In this document: piece by piece, positions 49,124-59,765 of the stretch | How the letters are laid out: every line of letters begins with the position of its first letter | Numbering within the stretch: position 1 is the stretch's first letter | The notes under the pieces: generated by a model | The model's input: only the letters and a program-made list of their open reading frames with translations | Database searches by the model: none | What the model was told of the DNA's origin: nothing | Program-made: the position numbers and the translations under genes | Source: Anaerohalosphaeraceae bacterium | GTDB lineage: Bacteria; Planctomycetota; Phycisphaerae; Sedimentisphaerales; Anaerohalosphaeraceae | Length of the DNA stretch: 64,000 nt | Assembly: GCA_050309605.1 (NCBI GenBank) | Contig: JBNRMN010000034.1 | Location: 32,001-96,000 of the forward strand | Direction of reading: 5' to 3'

Positions 49124-50269
49124 TCAGCCTGTCCTTTCGCGCAGCGTTTCGATGAGCGCTTCGATGCGCACCGACAGCCGGGGCGAATCCGACGGCGCAT
49201 AATCGGTCACGATTTTCAAATAGCCCAGACCTTTGCGCTCGGCCAGTTGACGCACATGATAGGATTCCACATCGTATGTCAGACAACCCTGCCAGACGAG
49301 ATCGATGATGCAGTCGGCGCTGTAGTCCTCGGTCAATTGATCGAGCAGCTCAAGCCGTCGCGTATTCGGCGTCATCACCGAGCAGGGCAGATGGAAATAC
49401 GTCTCGGCAATCGCCTCCAGCGGATCGATGGCCTGTTCCTCTACATCGTCAAGAACGGGTTTGATGCCGGTACAGTTTTCCATACACACCACCCGTGCAC
49501 CGGTGTGTTCGATTAAATCAACAATACGCTCGGCGCCGTGGACAGTCGGCACGCCGGTCAATAACACACGAATGCCGCTGTCGATGGTTGAACCGGCTGT
49601 GTCGGCAGATTCAAGCAATCGCTCATATTCATTCAAATCGTCCTCGATGCCGGAGATGATGCTTTTGAAGTCCAGCAGCCGTCGGCCTGTCCACGGCGGC
49701 CGGGGGCGTTTCATTTGCTCGGCCAGTTGCCGCCGCAATGCGCGTTCGCGATTCATTCGTTTGATGGCGCTGCGCAGCGCGTCGTCCGTGATACGGCACG
49801 ACAGACGGTCTTCGAGTACTGCTTTGAGTTTTCGCACCTCGGCCAGCCAATGCGTTCGGGCATTCGGGTCGTCGGCCTTTTGCGGCAGTTCAAGGATGTG
49901 CATCGGACGTTGCTGTGCCATTAGCTCGAACATTTTCTTCTTGCCGTCGCAGGTGGTCTCAGCCACGATCAAATCGGCCATAGCCAGAAAGGGGTTGCTG
50001 TCGGTGATGTGGTAGCCATAGGTGGATTTAATCAGGGGGCACAGGCCGGCGGGCAGGTCCTGTTCGGCCGGGGCAATTGTTTCCAGCGACCCGCCGCACA
50101 GACACACCGGCACACCGCCGGCGGCAAGAATCAGTTCGCGCGGTGTGTATTCGCACATAATCCCGACGATGGGACGACCCTGGGATTGGGCGGCTGTCGC
50201 AAAGGCGTAACAGTGTTGAATCATTTGATCGAAGCGGCATTGTATCTGCGGGTTTTGGTTCTGTGTCAT
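49124..50269 (-). CDS. Double-cubane-cluster-type / 2-hydroxyacyl-CoA dehydratase family anaerobic reductase
   Basis: GIMCEYTPRE, LCGG, LCPLIKSTYG, AETTCDGKKKMFE, ENCTG, LPCSVMTPN, GCLTYDVE, TDY....RIEALIE. Confidence 0.85.
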   Translation of the reverse strand: MTQNQNPQIQCRFDQMIQHCYAFATAAQSQGRPIVGIMCEYTPRELILAAGGVPVCLCGGSLETIAPAEQDLPAGLCPLIKSTYGYHITDSNPFLAMADLIVAETTCDGKKKMFELMAQQRPMHILELPQKADDPNARTHWLAEVRKLKAVLEDRLSCRITDDALRSAIKRMNRERALRRQLAEQMKRPRPPWTGRRLLDFKSIISGIEDDLNEYERLLESADTAGSTIDSGIRVLLTGVPTVHGAERIVDLIEHTGARVVCMENCTGIKPVLDDVEEQAIDPLEAIAETYFHLPCSVMTPNTRRLELLDQLTEDYSADCIIDLVWQGCLTYDVESYHVRQLAERKGLGYLKIVTDYAPSDSPRLSVRIEALIETLRERTG

Positions 50270-50308: not shown

Positions 50309-51124
50309 TTATGCGGTTTTTACCGCGACGAACAAAGCCTGGATGATTTTGCCCTCGCGGGCCAGTTTTTCCATGGCGGCCATCTCTTTGCCGATGGTGT
50401 TGAGCAGGGTCTGGTCAAAGCCGATAATTTTCAGGGCGTCATACGTAAGCTGCGTACCGACCATTTTTTGATAGAGTTCCACATGGTCGGCAAAGCGGCC
50501 GGTGTCTTCCAGGTGCTTGACGGTGCAGCCGCTTTGTTCAAGCAGAGCGGCGTATCCGCTGCGGCTCTGAAGGTTGGGGAATTTCATAAACGCCAGTGTC
50601 CGCTGCAATTCCTCGGCGGTCATCGGCACATCGCCGAGCACCCAGTCGGTAAAGGCAATCGTACCGCCGGGGCGGACGATGCGGCAGGCCTCGGCAATCA
50701 TCGTGTCTTTGTCTTCCACATAGCACCAGGCGTCCTCGCCCCAGACGAAATCGGCGCTGGCAGCGGCAAGTCCGCTATTGCAGACATCGGCCAGGACAAA
50801 CTGAATCTTATCGTCAGAATGTTCTTCCTGGCAACGTTTTTTACCCAGTTCGACCATCGCTGCTGTGGCATCAACGCCGGTCATGGCGGCGACGCCGCAG
50901 AACCGCACGAGGAAGCGCATCCCTGCGCCGCTGCAGCAGCAGAAATCCACGCCTTTGGTACCGGGCTGAATTGCGGCCTTCTTGGCCAGATCCATCGACG
51001 AGGTCAATCCGCCGATATGAATCTGCTCGCCCATGAGCAATTCCCAGAGTTTGCCTTCGGGGCCGCTATAAACCGTTTGAACCGCTGCCAGCGGACTGTT
51101 TGATTGTTGTGCTGTTTGCTTCAT
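50309..51124 (-). CDS. Class I SAM-dependent methyltransferase with Cys-rich motif I
   Basis: GEQIHIGG, VDFCCCSGAG (motif I), TGVDAT, FVLADVC, DAWCYV, RIVRPGGTIAFTDW. Confidence 0.88.
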   Translation of the reverse strand: MKQTAQQSNSPLAAVQTVYSGPEGKLWELLMGEQIHIGGLTSSMDLAKKAAIQPGTKGVDFCCCSGAGMRFLVRFCGVAAMTGVDATAAMVELGKKRCQEEHSDDKIQFVLADVCNSGLAAASADFVWGEDAWCYVEDKDTMIAEACRIVRPGGTIAFTDWVLGDVPMTAEELQRTLAFMKFPNLQSRSGYAALLEQSGCTVKHLEDTGRFADHVELYQKMVGTQLTYDALKIIGFDQTLLNTIGKEMAAMEKLAREGKIIQALFVAVKTA

Positions 51125-51203: not shown

Positions 51204-51464
51204 TTATCGCGTCAACTCCTCAATCGAATACCATCGGTTTTCCTGGTGGACGGTAAACGGTCCGGAATCGATGTCGATTTCGATGCGGAACCGCCTGCGG
51301 AAGTCCTCTGGCACTCGCCACGAGTACCGGCAGGTGCTGCCTCACCCATACTCCATAGAGCCGGTGCGCAGGAAACCGCCGTCTTCAAGCCGAGCTGTTT
51401 CGAAGTTTGTATAGAAAAACGAATAGCCAGGAGATTGCGAATGTTTTTTTTCGATTCCCGTCAT
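51204..51464 (-). CDS. Putative small soluble selenoprotein (86 aa, Sec41, G-U-G-S-T-C)
   Basis: MTGIEKKHSQSPGYSFFYTNFETARLEDGGFLRTGSMEYG-U-GSTCRYSWRVPEDFRRRFRIEIDIDSGPFTVHQENRWYSIEELTR. Single in-frame TGA at 51344-51342; SECIS-like hairpin 13 nt downstream; divergent from selA. Confidence 0.75.
51310..51328 (-). promoter_or_regulatory. Putative bacterial SECIS element
   Basis: GGUACUCG-UGG-CGAGUGCC: 8-bp stem, UGG loop, starting 13 nt after UGA. Confidence 0.7.
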
Positions 51465-51539
51465 GACTCCGATTCCAATGTGTCCGTCAATTCTTTAAAG
51501 ACGTTTGCCGTACGACGGTGTTACGAAGATTTTTGTTAT

Positions 51540-51710: not shown

Positions 51711-53111
51711 ATGGAAGCACAGATTCAGGCGCAGCTTCGGCAGATTCCTTCGGTGGATGCGGTGTTATCGCAGATTCAGGCACATCCGGCGGCCCGGCGT
51801 GTGGGTGCGGCGATGCGGACGCAACTGGTGCGCGAGGTGATTGAGACAATCCGCCGGCAGGTGCGGGACGGGACATTTTCAGCCGATGCCGATATGGCCG
51901 GGGCGGTGCGGGACCGGATCGAGCGGCGACTGGAAGCGGTGGCGGGGGTGTTTTATCGACGGGTGGTCAATGCGGCCGGGATCATTCTGCACACCGGACT
52001 GGGACGGGCGCCGCTGGCGGGTGAGGTCCTGGAGCAGATCAGCTGGCAGTTGGGCGGGTATTCGCTGTTGCAGGTGGATGTCGAGGCGGGCAAGCGGTCC
52101 TCGCGAGATGGACGGATTGAAGACTTGCTCAAACTGCTGACCGGCGCCGAAGCGGCGACCGTGGTGAATAATAACGCCGCGGCCACGGCGCTGGTGCTGA
52201 ACACCATTGCCGCAGGCAAAGAGGTCATCGTGTCGCGCGGACAGCTCGTCGAGATCGGCGGGGCGTTTCGCCTGCCGGACGTGATGGCCTTTAGCGGGGC
52301 CAGGCTGGTCGAGGTGGGTACCACCAACAAGACGCACCTGCGGGATTATGAGAATGCGATTACCGAAAACACCGCCGCGATTTTGCGGGTGCATCCGAGC
52401 AATTATAAGATTACGGGTTTTACGAGCGAAGTGCCGCTGGAGGAGATGGTCAAGCTGGCCCACGCCAACGGCCTTTTGCTGTTTGATGATGTCGGGGCCG
52501 GGTCGCTGATTGATTTTTCGCGATTTGGATTTGAAAAAGAGCCGACGTTGATGGAATCGGTCGCCGCCGGGGCCGATGTGATTACCTCCAGCGGCGACAA
52601 ACTCATCGGGGCCTCTCAGGCGGGGATCGTCCTTGGCCGTGCCGAAATCATCCAGAAGGTGCGCAAAAATCAATTTGCGCGGATCGTGCGGGTCGATAAG
52701 TTTACGCTGGCGGCGTTGGAGGCGACGCTGAAATTGTTTCTGGATGAGGCGGCGGTGTTGGAAAAGGTGCCCGCCTTGCGGCTGATGCTGCGTTCGGCGG
52801 AGGAGATTCAGCGGCAGGCCGAGCGCATCTGCGAACGGGTGCAGAGGGCCTGCCCTGATGCGTGCGTCTCACTGCTGCCGGGCCAGTCGCAAATCGGAAG
52901 CGGCTCACTGCCCGGACAAAACCTGCCGACGACCCTGGTGGCAATTGCGTCGCCGCATCAATCCGCTGCGGCACTGGCCGACACGCTGCGGGGCGCTGCG
53001 ACGCCGGTCTTTACGCGCATCGGCGATGATCGTGTGCTGATTGACCCGCGCACGCTGCTGGACGGCGATGAGGCGATTTTGATTGAGACGCTGGTTGAAA
53101 TTCTGCATTAA
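51711..53111 (+). CDS. selA: L-seryl-tRNA(Sec) selenium transferase
   Basis: RVVNAAGIILHTGLGRAPL, VVNNNAAA, SRGQLVEIGGAFRLPDVM, EVGTTNKTH, HPSNY, SGDKLIG (PLP Lys), GSGSLP. Confidence 0.97.
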   Translation: MEAQIQAQLRQIPSVDAVLSQIQAHPAARRVGAAMRTQLVREVIETIRRQVRDGTFSADADMAGAVRDRIERRLEAVAGVFYRRVVNAAGIILHTGLGRAPLAGEVLEQISWQLGGYSLLQVDVEAGKRSSRDGRIEDLLKLLTGAEAATVVNNNAAATALVLNTIAAGKEVIVSRGQLVEIGGAFRLPDVMAFSGARLVEVGTTNKTHLRDYENAITENTAAILRVHPSNYKITGFTSEVPLEEMVKLAHANGLLLFDDVGAGSLIDFSRFGFEKEPTLMESVAAGADVITSSGDKLIGASQAGIVLGRAEIIQKVRKNQFARIVRVDKFTLAALEATLKLFLDEAAVLEKVPALRLMLRSAEEIQRQAERICERVQRACPDACVSLLPGQSQIGSGSLPGQNLPTTLVAIASPHQSAAALADTLRGAATPVFTRIGDDRVLIDPRTLLDGDEAILIETLVEILH

Positions 53112-53181: not shown

Positions 53182-55089
53182 ATGACCCAAATCAACATCA
53201 CTCTCGGCACCGCCGGGCATATTGACCACGGCAAGACGGCGTTGATCCGCTTGCTGACCGGCTGTGAGACCGACCGGCTCAAGGTCGAAAAACAGCGTGG
53301 CATGAGCATTGAGCTGGGCTTTGCCCCGTGTCTGCTGGGGGATAGGGAGGTGGGGATCGTCGATGTCCCCGGACACGAACATTTCATCAAGACGATGGTC
53401 GCCGGCGCCGCGGGCATTGACGGAGTGCTGTTTGTCGTGGCCGCCGATGACGGGATTATGCCTCAGACGCGCGAGCATCTGGAGATTTTGACCCTGCTGG
53501 GCGTGCGGCACGGCCTGACCGTCCTGACCAAGATCGATCGTGTTTCGGAGGAGCGCGTCGAGGCAGCGATCGATGAACTCCGAACGTTTTTGTGCGGCAC
53601 GTTTTTGCATGATGCCCCGATTTGCCCGATGTCCAGCATCACCGGGCAGGGATTCGACGGATTCTATACGGCGTTGAAAGATGTGGTCGCTTCCATATGC
53701 CCCAAAAGCATTGACGGGGTGTTTCGTCTGCCGGTGGAACGGGCGTTTTCGGTCAAGGGCTTCGGCACAGTGCTCAGCGGCATCCCCGCCGCCGGTTCGG
53801 CACAGATCGGCCAGGAAGTCGTCCTGCTGCCGAGCGGACAAACCGGACGCATCAAGGCGATACAGGTTTACGGCAAGCCGTCCGAATACGTGCGAAGCGG
53901 CCAGTGTGCGGCGCTGAATATCCCGCAGATGGATTATCGTACTATCCGACGGGGCGACGTGTTGACGGTAGAGGGGTATTTTTCTCCGACGCAGTGGTTT
54001 TTGTGTGCCGCCGCGGTGCTGCCCGGTCAGTCGCTGCCTGTTAAAAACGGTGCTGAGATGAGGTTCCACACCGGCACGGCGGATGTTGCGGCCAATGTTT
54101 ATCGTGTTGAGCGAGACGAGTACTTTGCCGACGGCGACTTCCTGCTTCAGATTCGTGCGCATACGCCGCTTGTGGCCGCCCCCGGCGACCGGTTTATCCT
54201 GCGGTCGCTGTCGCCGATGCGTACCGTCGGCGGGGGGCGCATCCTTCAGGCGATGTCATCGCGTCTTCGGTATGCTCACGGGCGGGGGCCGGCCTATGCC
54301 AAAGCACTGGCCGAGGCGCAGCGGAATGAAACGGCATTTGTCGCTTTTGCGGTGGAATCGGCGGCGTCCGGCGTCGCACGGCTTGATGATCTCACGTCGT
54401 TTACCAAGCAGAAGCCTGAGCGGGTGCGGCGGCTGCTGGCGGATTTGCTGCAGACACAAACCGTTGTCGCTTTGTCCGGCGATGTGTATATCCACGCCCG
54501 AAAACTGTCGGTGATGTGCCGGCACATCACCGAAACGCTTGAGCAGTTTCACGCCGACCATCCCGAACGGCCGGGCATGGATGCGGAAGCTTTAGCCGAG
54601 CGGCTTGAACTGGGCAAAGGCGTTTTTGATGCCCTGCTGGAAGTTGCCCTGAAACAAGGGACGGTCGTGCGGCGTCTGGATCGGCTGGCACTGCCGTCGC
54701 ACACCGAAACCTGCAATCCGGCTCTGGCAAAACGGCTCCGGCAAATCGAAACAGCGTTCCTGAAAAACCTGTTTGCTCCTCCCGGCCTCAATGAACTGAC
54801 GGCCGAGTCCGGCCTGACCCCATCACAAATCCGGGAGGCCATTACGATTTTGATCGAACAGAAAAAACTATTTTATGTGGACCGAACGATGGTATTCCAC
54901 GCCGAGGCCGTAAAGCAGGCCAAACGCCGTATTGCCGAGCATATTCAGGGCCAAGGGCGGGGCCGTCTGGAAAGCGTCGCATTCAAATACTTGATTGATA
55001 CGACCCGAAAATACGCCATTCCGCTGCTGGATTATATGGACAAAATCGGCTTTACCCGTCGGGTCGGCAATACACGTTACTTGAAATAA
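53182..55089 (+). CDS. selB: Selenocysteine-specific elongation factor
   Basis: GTAGHIDHGKT, DRLKVEKQRGMSIELGF, DVPGHEHF, TKID, VERAFSVKGFGTV, C-terminal SECIS-binding winged helix TTRKYAIPLLDYMD...TRRVGNTR. Confidence 0.97.
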   Translation: MTQINITLGTAGHIDHGKTALIRLLTGCETDRLKVEKQRGMSIELGFAPCLLGDREVGIVDVPGHEHFIKTMVAGAAGIDGVLFVVAADDGIMPQTREHLEILTLLGVRHGLTVLTKIDRVSEERVEAAIDELRTFLCGTFLHDAPICPMSSITGQGFDGFYTALKDVVASICPKSIDGVFRLPVERAFSVKGFGTVLSGIPAAGSAQIGQEVVLLPSGQTGRIKAIQVYGKPSEYVRSGQCAALNIPQMDYRTIRRGDVLTVEGYFSPTQWFLCAAAVLPGQSLPVKNGAEMRFHTGTADVAANVYRVERDEYFADGDFLLQIRAHTPLVAAPGDRFILRSLSPMRTVGGGRILQAMSSRLRYAHGRGPAYAKALAEAQRNETAFVAFAVESAASGVARLDDLTSFTKQKPERVRRLLADLLQTQTVVALSGDVYIHARKLSVMCRHITETLEQFHADHPERPGMDAEALAERLELGKGVFDALLEVALKQGTVVRRLDRLALPSHTETCNPALAKRLRQIETAFLKNLFAPPGLNELTAESGLTPSQIREAITILIEQKKLFYVDRTMVFHAEAVKQAKRRIAEHIQGQGRGRLESVAFKYLIDTTRKYAIPLLDYMDKIGFTRRVGNTRYLK

Positions 55090-55141
55090 GTCTGCTTGAA
55101 TCCATCGGCAAAAAAGGATATATTGGTCAAGAGAGGTGTTT

Positions 55142-55402
55142 ATGCGATACGGTGCAATTTCTGCCAAACTGTTGGCGCTGGGGGTGGGCAGTTTCGTCGT
55201 GCTGGTGGTTCTTCAGCCGGGGTGAGGCAATCCCTTTGGAGTGCTTGGAGCACTCCTGATGATGGTTAGTATGCCGCTGGCGCTGGTCTTCGGCGTTATC
55301 GGCGTGTTTCTGGACAAACCCCGCTGGCCGGCGATCATTGCCGCGCTGATTGCATTGCTCTTGCTGTTGCCGGTCGTGATGAACCTGGCCGGCTGGTGCT
55401 AA
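55142..55402 (+). CDS. Putative small 3-TM membrane selenoprotein (86 aa, Sec28, C-terminal Cys86)
   Basis: GAGG RBS 5 nt before ATG. MRYGAISAKLLALGVGSFVVLVVLQPG-U-GNPFGVLGALLMMVSMPLALVFGVIGVFLDKPRWPAIIAALIALLLLLPVVMNLAGWC. TGA at 55223-55225; SECIS-like hairpin 12 nt downstream; directly after selB. Confidence 0.78.
55238..55256 (+). promoter_or_regulatory. Putative bacterial SECIS element
   Basis: GGAGUGCU-UGG-AGCACUCC: perfect 8-bp stem, UGG loop, starting 12 nt after UGA. Confidence 0.72.
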
Positions 55403-55404
55403 GG

Positions 55405-57996
55405 TCAACGGCTTTCAAAGGTGCGCCCGCCGGAGCCGACCGATTCAATGACCCACCAGCCGTCCGATTGGACGGCCTCAGTCGGTTTGCCGTTCATCAG
55501 CACGGCCGGGCGGTCGCTGTGCTGAACGGGCAGATATACCTCTGCGGTCATATTGGCCGGCAGGGTGATGTCCAGTTCAAAGGTCCCCGCCGTATCGCGA
55601 AAGGCCGCCTCGATAGTCCCCCGAATCGTCGGAAGCCTGAGCTGTGCCCATTCCAGCCCGCCGGTTTGCGGACGGATGCGAATGCGACCGTAACCGGCCT
55701 CGATCGGTTCAATGCCGAACAGTCGGCGGGGGATGATATTGAGCGGGGCACTGGCCCATGGGTGGGCATAGCTCATATTGGGCTTGCCGGACGGATCCCA
55801 TGACTCAGTGGTGATAGTCGCGCCGAGGTGATGGATCATATGATGCCAGGAATGTTTCTCGGTCGAGGTCATCAGTGCCAGCGCCGCATCACCGCGGTCG
55901 GCGTTATACAGCGCATCGAGCAGGTATTGCGCCCCATACACGCTGCAAACCATTCCTTTCTCGATCAGAAACTGAGCCACTAACTTTTTGCGTTCCGGCG
56001 GCGTGACCGTCAGCGCCAGCGGAAAGAAGTTCGCATGAGCAGCGCTGTGGGCGCTGTCGCGTCCGTCGCGATAGATACCGGATTGTGCATCGAACAGATG
56101 GGTGTTTATTGCATTTTTGACCTGCTCGGCTGCGGCGGCGTAACGAGTTGGGTCGTTGGTTTTATCCAATACGCCGGCGATGCGGCTGAGCAGCTCCACG
56201 GCCTTATAATGAAAGGCATTCGTTACGGTGTTGATCGGCGTAAATTCATAGCCGTCGCGATAATACGCCGGCCAATCCACCAGCACGCGGTCGTTGTCGC
56301 TGTCGTGTTTTTCGACCAGTCCCTGTTCATTGACAAAATCGCACAGCGTTTTGGTCGTCAGGATATCATAGTGTCGGCGAATGGATTTTGCGTCGCCGGT
56401 GGCCATATAATCGGCCCAGGCCATCAGCAGGCAGGTTTGCTTGTACTCGGTCGGCCAGGTCGGGCGATGATACAGGTATTCGTTGGTATAACGGGCAAAC
56501 GCATATTCACGATCCGCCGCGTAATGGGAGAGCATATTGATGTAGGCGTCGCCCTCATACGGGCCGCGCTCGCGTGTCGGACAGTCCTGATACAGGTCGA
56601 TGTTGGTCGCCTTGATGCTGTAATGGCATAAGTCCCAGACTTCATTCAGGATGGTACTGGAACTGTCAAAGGCCGCCGCGTCCTGATCAAACGGATACTC
56701 AAGCGTCACAGTGCTCAGCACGAAGTCATCCGTCGGCAGGTTCAGCAGCTCGCCGTAGCGAAACCCGCGATAGCCGAAGTTCTCGATCACTTGCAGCCCG
56801 TCGCGCAGCGTCCATTTCTCGGCATAGGTAACGCCCGTGCGGGCTTGGTGACGAACGGTCTTATCGCCGTCCAGCTCTTCGCCGAGGCGTACTTCGATCT
56901 GTCGTCCGTTCGTGCCTTCAATGGACAGACGCACACACCCGACAATCTCCCTACCAAAATCAAAGAAATAATGCCCTTCGCTTTTTTTGTGCATCAGGAC
57001 GGGCTTGACCTCTTCCATTTGCACATTGCGAATCGGCTGAGCAACCAGTCGCTCGGCATAATGCGGTACGGTGCGCACCGAACGCCAGCCGCTGTCGTCA
57101 AAGTCGGTCCTCAGCCAGCCGTGCGGTTCATTGCGGGCGTCGATATGTTCCGGGCCGGCCTCGTAATACCAAAAAAACTTCGGCCCCATATTATAATAAG
57201 GATCGGCGTTGATCCCCCGCCACGTATCGTCTGTGCCGAATGTGCCGACGGCGTCGTCTTTGTAGAAGACTTTGATCTCGGCGATAAAATCTTTGGCGCG
57301 ACCATTGGAAAAACAGATGGCCCCCAGCACATGACTCGTTCCGGCGGTCAAATGCTCAGTGATATCGAAAACGTTGTAGGGCACCTTGCCGTCGTAGCCT
57401 CGCGCCGGCCCAATGCCGATGGGTGTGTCGTTGACATAGAATTTGAAGACATACTGGCGCGACGGATGGGTATCGCGCCCGCTGACAAATGCGAACGCCT
57501 TCTCGATGGGTTTGTCAGGCAGTTCTATCGTATCGCGCAGGAACACATATTTATTTTCTGCCGCTGCCCAGATCGGACGGGCGGACCAGGTGTCTTTCAG
57601 TGCCGTGACGAACAATTGCGGCTCGGCATACGGCCCCGGCTGGTTTCTGTTGTTCCAGGTCCGAACCGTCCACCGGTACATCCGCCCGGGTTGCAGTTCC
57701 GGCCCGGCATACGGCACGGCAATCGACCGCGGCGAAGCGACTTTGCCGGAATCCCACACCAGCGTCCGCTTGCTGCTGAGGCCGGTATAGACCTGAATCT
57801 GATAAGCCGTCTGCACGGCGTCAGGCTGCGGGTCGTTGACAATCCAGGAAAACGCCGGCGTAAAATCCTCAATTCCCAGCGGCTCGGGGTTTAAGTCACA
57901 CAGCAAACCCGTCGGTTGTTGCGGCGGTCTGGCACACCCGCAGGCCGCCAACAGCGTACCGGCCAAGAGAACCTTACAGCAGTGTCTTAAGTTCAT
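55405..57996 (-). CDS. Alpha-L-rhamnosidase-like lipoprotein (GH78)
   Basis: Lipobox LAAC; QTAYQI..WDSGKV, FDFGRE, YRGFRY, DCPTRERGPYEGD, GATITTESW, SYAHPW; start uncertain (57996-58008). Confidence 0.9.
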   Translation of the reverse strand: MNLRHCCKVLLAGTLLAACGCARPPQQPTGLLCDLNPEPLGIEDFTPAFSWIVNDPQPDAVQTAYQIQVYTGLSSKRTLVWDSGKVASPRSIAVPYAGPELQPGRMYRWTVRTWNNRNQPGPYAEPQLFVTALKDTWSARPIWAAAENKYVFLRDTIELPDKPIEKAFAFVSGRDTHPSRQYVFKFYVNDTPIGIGPARGYDGKVPYNVFDITEHLTAGTSHVLGAICFSNGRAKDFIAEIKVFYKDDAVGTFGTDDTWRGINADPYYNMGPKFFWYYEAGPEHIDARNEPHGWLRTDFDDSGWRSVRTVPHYAERLVAQPIRNVQMEEVKPVLMHKKSEGHYFFDFGREIVGCVRLSIEGTNGRQIEVRLGEELDGDKTVRHQARTGVTYAEKWTLRDGLQVIENFGYRGFRYGELLNLPTDDFVLSTVTLEYPFDQDAAAFDSSSTILNEVWDLCHYSIKATNIDLYQDCPTRERGPYEGDAYINMLSHYAADREYAFARYTNEYLYHRPTWPTEYKQTCLLMAWADYMATGDAKSIRRHYDILTTKTLCDFVNEQGLVEKHDSDNDRVLVDWPAYYRDGYEFTPINTVTNAFHYKAVELLSRIAGVLDKTNDPTRYAAAAEQVKNAINTHLFDAQSGIYRDGRDSAHSAAHANFFPLALTVTPPERKKLVAQFLIEKGMVCSVYGAQYLLDALYNADRGDAALALMTSTEKHSWHHMIHHLGATITTESWDPSGKPNMSYAHPWASAPLNIIPRRLFGIEPIEAGYGRIRIRPQTGGLEWAQLRLPTIRGTIEAAFRDTAGTFELDITLPANMTAEVYLPVQHSDRPAVLMNGKPTEAVQSDGWWVIESVGSGGRTFESR

Positions 57997-58406
57997 AAAA
58001 AACCTCATTGTACATCTTTAATCGTAAGTCTTGATTGCTTTCAGAGTATAACGCAAAAATCCTGTGGTGTCCAATGACTCGCACGCACCGCCGGTTCTTT
58101 TCAAAAAGTCCAAACGGATACCGCCGATACCGCGTCAGCCGGACTGGGAGGTGGAATCTGATTATGGGACGATGTTAAAAAAGTTTTGTTGCACAGCGGC
58201 CCCAAAGGGCTTGTGGATGGATCTTTTATCGGAAGTAAGTTGGCTTATGTCTTTTTTATACAGCAACTTGTATATTTTTTCGAAAAGTGTATCACGGTTG
58301 TTGATATGTTTAAGTTAGCCCGAAGACCGGTTTGACCGATACAACGGCGTAACGTAATTTTTACGAAGGGAAAGGTCTCGCAAGCGTGTCTTGAAAGTCG
58401 ATAACA

Positions 58407-59765
58407 ATGAGCCGAATGAACTGGACAATTCTGGCATTGATGCTGATGATCCCCGGTGCAGTGGGTCTGGGGTGGGGGACGATGCAAAATCGCCAAGCCG
58501 CCCGGCGGATCGTTCAAGCCGCCGGGACGATTGAGCAGGCCCCTTCAGCCGACGAATATCTTGCTATGTATGCCCAGTGGTCACAGCTGTCGCCTGCGGA
58601 GAAAGCTGAAAACCCTTGGGGGCAGGGTCCATACGGCGGAGCCGACATACAAAAGCGGCTGCGAGAACATCAGCAGCCGCGTCTTGAGGCGGATTTGCCC
58701 GATCTTGACGCGGGACTGAAGACATACCCGCCCCAGCTTGCCGATGTGTTATACGGTCCGGGCTGGGAGCAGCGGCTGGCCGATTTCCAGCGCGCGCGTG
58801 AAATACGCAATCTGGTGACGACCGCATCAGGGATTTTGTTGTTTGCGGGGGGGTTGCTGTTTTGCGGCGGACTGGTCCGATATGCGGTCGTACGAGTTCT
58901 GTATAAAGAGCAAACCGAGCAGATGTCAGAGGAAATCCAGGCATTTGAGGATACCGAGATGAACAATAAGGGCGTCAAAGAACCCGCCGGCAAGGGGTCG
59001 GATCGTCCATCCGCTTCGGCCATGGCGCAAACGCCGGACGCTCCGGTCAAACCCGCCGTGAAGTCCGCTGATAGCTGCGGCTATTTTGAATCCACGGAGA
59101 ACCATCAAAAACAGGCCGTGAAGTCCGCTATGTCCACACCGATGCCTGCTGCCCAACCTTCGGGCGACTTCGCGGCGTCGGTGTCTCTGGTTGATTCGTC
59201 TTCGGCGCCGCAGAGCCGGTCGTATTTTGGCTGGGAAATGGATACCCAGGAAGAGGATCCGGCGATCTCGACGCTGATGACGACACACCCCGTTACTCAT
59301 GAACTGACGGAGTTGACCGAAGAAGTCTCGGCCATTCGTCAATACGCCGCCGCTCAGCAGGATCAAATCCGTAAGTTCCAGGATGGGTATGACTGGATGA
59401 TCATCCGTCGGTTTTGTATGCGGATCATTCGCTGTATTGACAATCTGGACGACCGGCTGGCCAAACTTGACCCGGAAGAACAAACCCTGCAAGGCTGTCT
59501 GGAAGACATTCGGGATGAATTGATTTTTGCGCTGGAGTCCAGCGGTGTTGAGCAGTTCAGTCCCGATGTGAAGACGCCTTTCAAAGGGCTTGAAAAATAC
59601 GTCGAGGCAGTGCATCAGCGGGTTCCTGTTTCGAATGCGGATTGGGCGGGAACCATTGCCGAGATTGTTCGCCCCGGCTATCAATATCTGATCAACGATG
59701 ACGAGGTAAAAATTGTGCGTTGTGCACAGGTCAAACTGTACGACGCAGCGGAAACTGAAGCATAA
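58407..59765 (+). CDS. Membrane-anchored protein with C-terminal GrpE domain
   Basis: Two hydrophobic segments, long linker, C-terminal IIRCIDNL...ALESSGVEQF...GTIAEIVRPGY.......IVRCAQV (GrpE-like). Confidence 0.75.
   Translation: MSRMNWTILALMLMIPGAVGLGWGTMQNRQAARRIVQAAGTIEQAPSADEYLAMYAQWSQLSPAEKAENPWGQGPYGGADIQKRLREHQQPRLEADLPDLDAGLKTYPPQLADVLYGPGWEQRLADFQRAREIRNLVTTASGILLFAGGLLFCGGLVRYAVVRVLYKEQTEQMSEEIQAFEDTEMNNKGVKEPAGKGSDRPSASAMAQTPDAPVKPAVKSADSCGYFESTENHQKQAVKSAMSTPMPAAQPSGDFAASVSLVDSSSAPQSRSYFGWEMDTQEEDPAISTLMTTHPVTHELTELTEEVSAIRQYAAAQQDQIRKFQDGYDWMIIRRFCMRIIRCIDNLDDRLAKLDPEEQTLQGCLEDIRDELIFALESSGVEQFSPDVKTPFKGLEKYVEAVHQRVPVSNADWAGTIAEIVRPGYQYLINDDEVKIVRCAQVKLYDAAETEA

Follow-up and report, generated by a model that had tools for sequence, protein, structure and literature searches.

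The window analyzed here, a stretch of 64,000 nucleotides from one contig of an Anaerohalosphaeraceae bacterium, harbors a same-strand cluster of selenium genes that runs from selA, encoding L-seryl-tRNA(Sec) selenium transferase, through selB, encoding the selenocysteine (Sec)-specific elongation factor, to a small open frame of 86 codons in which codon 28 is TGA (Table 1). Translated with TGA as Sec (U), this frame reads MRYGAISAKLLALGVGSFVVLVVLQPG-U-GNPFGVLGALLMMVSMPLALVFGVIGVFLDKPRWPAIIAALIALLLLLPVVMNLAGWC. The sequence-only reading that drew attention to the frame described its layout accurately: a GAGG ribosome-binding site stands 5 nt before the ATG, a 52-nt spacer separates the start from the end of selB, the in-frame TGA follows the first hydrophobic segment in the context QPG-U-GNP, a perfect SECIS-like hairpin lies downstream of it, and the frame closes with ...GWC-TAA only 2 nt from the convergent GH78 gene, Cys86 being the sole Cys of the translated protein. 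Of 58 family members, 40 likewise have a Shine-Dalgarno-like tetramer ahead of their start codon. A search of 54900-55600, which includes the interval between selB and the small frame, revealed no terminator-like site. Given the weak promoter-like match in that interval, the small gene may also be transcribed on its own. A contig of one sequencing run (probably DNA, possibly from the source sample) spans positions 55175-55500 and carries the TGA unchanged.

Table 1. Genes and sequence features around the selenium cluster, in window coordinates.
Feature	Position	Strand	Basis and remarks
2-hydroxyglutaryl-CoA dehydratase D-component gene	49124-50269	-	Pfam; ordinary-looking, upstream of the selenium cluster
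Class I methyltransferase gene	50309-51124	-	Pfam; ordinary-looking, upstream of the selenium cluster
Second selenoprotein candidate, 96-codon open frame with TGA at 51342-51344	51207-51494	-	Motif EYG-U-GSTC..SWR; 8-bp stem, UGG triloop
selA, L-seryl-tRNA(Sec) selenium transferase	51711-53111	+	Pfam SelA, E 1.2e-140; first gene of the same-strand cluster
selB, Sec-specific elongation factor	53182-55089	+	Pfam GTP_EFTU, Beta-barrel_SelB, SelB-wing_2, SelB-wing_3; directly 5' of the small frame
Weak sigma-70-like promoter match, TTGAAT-17-TATATT	55096-55124	+	Consensus scan, 9/12 positions, consensus match only; in the spacer between selB and the small frame
Shine-Dalgarno-like GAGG	55133-55136	+	Read from sequence; 5 nt 5' of the ATG (55142)
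Small membrane selenoprotein gene (predicted)	55142-55402	+	86 codons and TAA, Sec at codon 28; translated with TGA=U
In-frame TGA, codon 28 (U28)	55223-55225	+	Conserved in homologues; context QPG-U-GNP
SECIS-type hairpin, 8-bp stem and UGG triloop	55238-55256	+	Fold and covariation; 12 nt after the TGA
GH78 gene	55405-58008	-	Bac_rhamnosid6H, E 1.3e-46; convergent, own TGA stop
452-residue frame	58407-59765	+	C-terminal third matches GrpE, E 1.2e-6; far longer than the 165-position GrpE Pfam model

Matches that span exactly one TGA at the same position are present in 7 of 41 related genomes (the window's own included), with identities from 93% down to 37%; three further weak matches among the 41 (E 6.5e-4 to 1.9e-3) seem spurious. 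The TGA contexts of the related-genome matches served to build a DNA pattern, which hit 87 places in species-representative genomes, 63 of which fit the protein profile at E < 1e-5, the remaining 24 being chance hits in unrelated bacteria. Because this genome set was selected by its TGA and loop, a second set of metagenome loci was drawn solely by N-terminal and loop-2 peptide patterns, with codon 28 ignored, and TGA occupies codon 28 in all 80 of these loci (73 distinct proteins). The start codon lies exactly 27 codons 5' of the TGA in 50 of 58 genome members, and the entropies of the three codon positions are 1.03/0.75/1.62 before the TGA vs 1.16/0.75/1.61 after it, third-position entropy falling to 1.22 over the hairpin. 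With the codon positions equally variable on either side of the TGA, codons 1-27 must be translated in frame with what follows, and their conservation excludes a start only at the internal Met codons, a prospect that the sequence-only reading had named as fatal to its case. Both the position of the UGA and the coding conservation on its two flanks are thus as in a bacterial selenoprotein gene. TGA otherwise serves as a normal stop in these organisms, ending the GH78 gene and 27 of the 58 family genes.

Gene callers trim the small selenoprotein to a 47-residue fragment, and a word-indexed protein search with it returned three 47-residue fragments only, all starting after the TGA. The pooled genome and metagenome sets comprise 115 distinct complete proteins of 79-100 residues, for which U at residue 28 was a selection criterion. 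Among 57 lineage-labelled genome members, 55 are Planctomycetota (Phycisphaerae, Sedimentisphaerales, Anaerohalosphaeraceae, Pirellulales and Planctomycetales, order-level labels being unreliable), and the other two are one Anaerolineales and one Candidatus Aegiribacteria. The family also has variant members: two copies (L072 and L088) begin without the first helix from a short MFLCQPG-U... start, a degenerate copy (L035) has its TGA 45 nt past the end of the selB match, and a divergent relative of 174 residues (L050) has extra helices.

The arms of the hairpin, GGAGTGCT (55238-55245) and AGCACTCC (55249-55256), pair perfectly over 8 bp around a TGG loop (55246-55248). Folded from the window sequence alone, the hairpin is not significant (z = -1.60, with 18 of 200 shuffles folding equally well or better); its significance stems from well over 100 related loci, in which the TGA recurs at an identical distance from a covarying stem. 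In the pattern-selected alignment of 56 sequences, 93.3% of cells are paired vs 75.2% after shuffling, both members of a pair are changed in 77 cells vs 15.9 in the shuffles, none of 500 shuffles reaches the observed score, and slid controls are paired at 35-57%. Because the DNA pattern had fixed 4 of the 16 stem columns in this alignment, the count was repeated on the pattern-free metagenome set (69 distinct sequences), where 92.6% of cells are paired vs 86.4% after shuffling, both-side changes number 43 vs 13.6, again 0 of 500 shuffles reach the score, slid controls are paired at 31-62%, and three sequences have U-A in place of the closing C-G pair. Mismatches in the three to five inner pairs of the stem are almost absent (none among the 56 sequences), and each of the outer three is unpaired in 7 to 17 sequences. 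The gene thus has a stem-loop directly 3' of the UGA that is conserved as a structure, as is characteristic of bacterial selenoprotein genes.

The hairpin loop encodes Leu35-Gly36, and in the 115 TGA forms L35 is retained in 112 and G36 in 108, whereas only 5 of 26 homologues without the TGA keep LG at this position; the constraint on the loop hence acts on the RNA rather than on the protein. The Rfam SECIS models gave no match, either at the gathering threshold or at E <= 10. When the organism's own genome was scanned for a UGG-triloop stem 3' of a TGA, 26 hits were obtained, three of which, besides the small frame, are paralogous frames that are conserved across their TGA and carry the UGG loop 21 nt after it. 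From these same-spaced hairpins, it follows that this SECIS geometry is shared by further candidate selenoprotein genes in the organism's genome. A genome-wide scan on codon scores plus any hairpin was dropped, being unspecific and having missed the small frame itself.

In the 115 proteins the turn around residue 28 is near-invariant (P26 in 113, G27 in 115, G29 in 108 and P31 in 113), and conservation extends past the hairpin to G51 (113), G54 (114), D58 (114) and K61 (100). Three hydrophobic segments had been proposed from the sequence, and AlphaFold2, given a 44-sequence alignment, predicts three helices at residues 2-24, 31-57 and 61-85 with low confidence (mean pLDDT 66.5, pTM 0.37). Positive charges are unevenly distributed: the mean number of K+R is 1.82 at the N-terminus and 2.54 in loop 2 vs 0.66 in loop 1 and 0.70 in the C-terminal tail, or 4.36 vs 1.36 in sum. 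This distribution fits an N-in/C-out arrangement, in which Sec28 and the C-terminus would share the outer face of the membrane, in keeping with the earlier prediction that Sec28 and the C-terminal residue both face outward. In genomes that carry two copies in tandem, both paralogues have the same charge bias, i.e., one fixed orientation, and this common bias suggests a parallel rather than an inverted assembly. Look-alikes of a natural homologue (P0007) in the protein Atlas were generic small membrane proteins (YnaG, score 0.91) and were not used as evidence.

A profile search of 1.84 billion representative proteins returned 86 hits, 49 of them short fragments that start after the TGA (as judged by length and match position), one the 27-residue part that precedes it, and five in which the internal and the terminal TGA are both read as W. 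The residue aligned under Sec in 26 non-TGA homologues is R in five, G in four, V in four, L in three, C, A and K in two each, and P, E and Y in one each, with one gap; some of the G forms could reflect a TGA read as Gly by the gene caller. The sequence-only reading had looked to Cys aligned with Sec at codon 28 for its confirmation and to non-Cys residues there for its refutation, and with Cys in only 2 of 26 homologues it is largely the latter that was found. SECIS-independent searches usually rely on Cys homologues that align with Sec (PMC12013277), a pattern seen here in only 2 of 26. The P-G-x-G-N-P turn decays in the same non-TGA homologues. We read the turn and Sec as a single site, retained intact together with Sec or else given up entirely, for which Cys would be no accepted substitute. 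The aligned homologues also suggest that the fold can persist without a thiol or selenol at residue 28 and that this residue may not be catalytic.

A Cys lies within the last four residues in 47 of the 115 proteins, vs 8.3% expected from composition, and in 14 it ends the chain; four proteins are devoid of Cys. As a family feature, the U28-C86 pair put forward for the window protein is not supported: C-terminal Cys is enriched, but it is not general, with 68 of the 115 proteins lacking it and four being Cys-free, so that an intramolecular U28-C86 bond cannot be the mechanism of the family. Such a bond may nonetheless form in the window protein itself.

A Pfam-A scan of the small protein (E <= 0.001) matched no family, Mer transporters, YeeE/YedE and DsbD/CcdA included, and the loose likeness to small Mer-type transporters suggested earlier was in this respect not borne out. 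An NCBIfam scan of the protein and three relatives (E <= 1) gave chance-level matches to unrelated transporter models only, the best at 18 bits vs a cut-off of 850, and the protein does not reach the cut-off of curated NCBIfam selenoprotein families such as VPGUxxT (NF041383), TsoX and TsoC. No small membrane selenoprotein, whether encoded after selB or from Planctomycetota, turned up in our literature search. Table 1 of a 2026 review (PMC13188914) covers 119 prokaryotic selenoprotein families, and within that table there is no three-helix protein with a PGUGNP-type motif, the sole PGU motif belonging to a thioredoxin-like family. The NCBIfam model of that thioredoxin-like family does not match the small protein. 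The main texts of deep-Sep (PMC12013277) and BSepDB (PMC13326102) contain neither 'Planctomycet' nor 'transmembrane', and their supplements may list more families. As judged from sequence conservation, the small frame represents a real family of predicted membrane selenoproteins, previously uncatalogued in the catalogues checked, that usually forms the tail of a selA-selB operon.

Several known systems invite comparison. MerT, MerF and MerC have a paired Cys motif in the first helix, and MerT has in addition a cytoplasmic Cys pair; the small protein matches none of these families, has one U and one C that are not adjacent, lacks the cytoplasmic pair, and is encoded next to selA and selB rather than mer genes. 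YeeE/YedE genes are often found near selenium-metabolism genes. DsbD/CcdA and YeeE/YedE are built as inverted repeats, whereas the tandem paralogues of the small protein share one fixed orientation, and the small protein matches neither YeeE/YedE (PF04143) nor the DsbD/CcdA-type membrane thiol relays in the Pfam-A scan. The eukaryotic proteins SELENOK and SELENOS are likewise very small and membrane-anchored, with one Sec and no recognizable enzyme fold, but they have a single helix, a cytosolic Sec near the C-terminus and a SECIS in the 3' UTR, and no homology is to be expected. The SECIS-like element of the E. coli selAB leader, in work attributed to Thanbichler and Boeck in 2002, reportedly binds SelB and represses translation. 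It resembles the present case in being a SelB-binding hairpin on the selAB message itself; it differs in lying at the 5' end, where it is not decoded and encodes nothing, whereas here the hairpin lies at the 3' end, inside a conserved coding frame. Among the known selenoproteins in Table 1 of PMC13188914 is a Sec-containing MerT-type 'putative mercuric transport protein' (PF02411), which is similarly a small inner-membrane protein of few helices with Sec/Cys near the outer end of the first helix, and both proteins are thought to bind a soft ligand; there is, however, no sequence match, and the MerT-type protein has a Cys/Sec pair where the small protein has a single Sec in P-G-U-G-N-P. The same table gives a selenoprotein form of YeeE/YedE (PF04143, motif GUxSG), another membrane protein with glycine-flanked Sec, and one tied to the transport of selenium or sulfur compounds, but YeeE/YedE is a large multi-helix transporter, whereas the small protein has 86 residues and three helices and no sequence match to it.

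The organism's genome, which is 99.7% complete, carries the full Sec machinery (selA, selB, selC and selD), with selD and then tRNA-Sec adjoining each other outside the window (contig C64:22338-23949); selD is a 575-codon open frame with no in-frame stop and is possibly fused to another domain. FdhA and Rdx found no match in this genome, the SelD, DUF1573, AhpC/TSA and Thioredoxin_2 matches have no in-frame stop, and none of these six known families tested (of more than 100 known) contains an in-frame TGA. Of 401 genomes sampled from the phylum, nine match the small protein, eight of them across one TGA, and selB scores above its curated cut-off in 281. Only 9 of the 281 selB-positive genomes have the small gene, all nine carriers having selB at E <= 1e-83, and the gene is hence an accessory of a minority of Sec users rather than a general part of the Sec pathway.

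The position behind selB is widely, if not universally, kept. A same-strand selB precedes the gene in 5 of 7 relatives. It does so in 41 of 63 genome loci as well, and in 34 of these its end is under 400 nt from the TGA; the other 22 of the 63 show no selB in the available DNA, some flanks being short, and the gene can thus work away from selAB. Where metagenome loci include 300 nt or more of DNA 5' of the gene, selB stands there on the same strand in 68 of 73 (54 within 300 nt and 14 at 404-542 nt), five having no selB; seven further loci were too short to judge. The larger gaps are filled by a second tandem copy with its own TGA at codon 28. Such pairs, each copy with its own TGA, occur, by our reading, in 22 of 143 loci; they include L113, L125, L107, L173 and L122, in which the second paralogue (MRFGKIAITLL...RPG-U-GNPIRALVG...YGGMLQ) lies between selB and the downstream copy. 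Away from selB, no recurring partner was found among 40 flanking frames of 15 loci, and copies there have mutually unrelated neighbors, e.g., photolyase/epimerase/MatE, MscS, GH15 or a response regulator.

A second selenoprotein candidate lies in the same window, divergent from selA, between the methyltransferase gene and selA. It has two larger paralogues on contig C2 (986- and 392-codon frames, L105), and neither Pfam nor NCBIfam covers its Sec domain. Matches occur in 12 of 41 related genomes, and all 26 of them span an in-frame TGA, kin among these not being independent; the seven genomes with the membrane selenoprotein are all among the 12. This is probably another uncatalogued selenoprotein family.

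How the small protein might act can be sketched as follows. SelB and Sec-tRNA(Sec) would decode the UGA at codon 28, directed by the hairpin 12 nt downstream, to yield an 86-residue protein with three transmembrane helices, N-in/C-out, whose P-G-U-G-N-P turn would expose a single selenol on the outside of the cytoplasmic membrane. Parallel homo- or hetero-oligomers are conceivable in view of the GxxG-type G51/G54, D58 and the tandem paralogues of some genomes, and the Sec residues of such an oligomer, together with the C-terminal Cys where present, could form a selenolate/diselenide site that binds or relays a soft ligand. A first guess for this ligand would be a selenium species that supplies the Sec pathway of the cell itself, since selAB is the only recurring neighbor. 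Confidence differs between the parts of this proposal. Taken as a whole, we consider it reasonably likely that the gene is a selenoprotein gene, the last cistron of selA-selB, with an outward selenol site and a possible soft-ligand role. Whether the outward-facing site is a chemical one appears to us evenly balanced. Selenium handling specifically, argued from the linkage to selAB and from analogy, is a doubtful proposition; selenoprotein genes can cluster with sel genes by co-inheritance alone, which leaves the selenium guess on weak ground. The most elaborate version, in which the Sec ring or pair at the outer mouth of a parallel oligomer would take up a selenium species (Se-Se) and pass it inward to SelD, SelA and SelB, we regard as rather improbable.

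These expectations must be set against other ways of reading the locus. The UGA and its hairpin may be mainly regulatory, with the chemistry of residue 28 mattering little: completion of the small protein, or occupancy of the 3' end of the selAB message by ribosomes and SelB, would report on the supply of Sec-tRNA(Sec) and SelB, as a sensor or gate. Pro-Gly 5' of a stop is a poor context for termination, the frame stands directly behind selB in most loci, two such frames occur in tandem at some loci, and homologues without the TGA have almost any residue at position 28, with a spectrum (R, G, L, C) like that of neutral point mutations in TGA. A device of RNA and translation alone would, however, need none of the strong protein conservation past the hairpin (G51, G54, D58, K61), and the near-invariance of P26-G27-x-G29-x-P31 with the TGA and its decay without are what one functional site of turn and Sec would leave behind; moreover, the window offers no downstream gene to regulate, as GH78 is convergent, and about one third of the genome loci have no selB nearby. 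On this balance, a chiefly regulatory role seems unlikely to us. We give a similarly small chance to the original suggestion that Sec28 and Cys86 act together within one chain, either as a redox pair joined by a selenenyl-sulfide bond or as the two ligands of a soft-metal site, after the fashion of small Mer-type proteins. The two residues share a predicted face, Cys86 has no competitor within the window protein, Cys is enriched among the last four residues (47 of 115 vs 8.3% expected), and a Sec-containing MerT-type protein is among the selenoproteins of PMC13188914 (Table 1). Against this pairing stand the 68 proteins without such a Cys and the four without any, the lack of a Pfam match to MerT or any other family, of a vicinal Cys pair and of mer genes among the neighbors, and the low confidence of the structure model.

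The remaining possibility is that no Sec is inserted, the TGA being either a true stop, which would leave a 27-residue peptide and a separate frame or dead gene, or a codon for another amino acid, with the hairpin used otherwise. Current annotation would agree with it, as gene callers start after the TGA (the 47-residue entries and 49 short fragments) and some pipelines read TGA as W. Sec insertion in bacteria usually competes with termination, and the 27-residue product is for that reason likely also made. The frame, the start position and the variability by codon position are, however, conserved across the TGA; all 80 loci of the unbiased set retain TGA although eight sense codons are one base away; the stem covaries at a fixed spacing; the TGA stops of GH78 and of 27 of the 58 family genes show that the code is not reassigned; and the genome has the full Sec machinery. 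A locus without Sec is accordingly very improbable, and 55142-55402 is, as far as conservation patterns can tell, very probably a Sec-decoded gene.

Bacterial selenoproteins are mostly soluble redox enzymes, recognized by the pairing of Sec and Cys in homologues. The family encoded by the small frame differs in being a predicted membrane microprotein that is fixed behind selB in most loci and duplicated in tandem in some genomes, and, as its Sec is almost never replaced by Cys, pipelines built on Sec/Cys pairs would miss it. It would enlarge the selenoproteome of the Planctomycetota by one family and, with the nearby candidate, probably by two, and it provides a compact native test case for Sec insertion, consisting of a UGA, a 12-nt spacer and a 19-nt hairpin, as well as a lead on the handling of selenium at the membrane. 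If the tentative selenium-handling role were true, selenoprotein synthesis would draw selenium from a member of its own class, a selenoprotein encoded in the operon of the machinery that it feeds, and this protein, together with the second Sec domain beside selA, may be what keeps the Sec trait in these anaerobic Planctomycetota.
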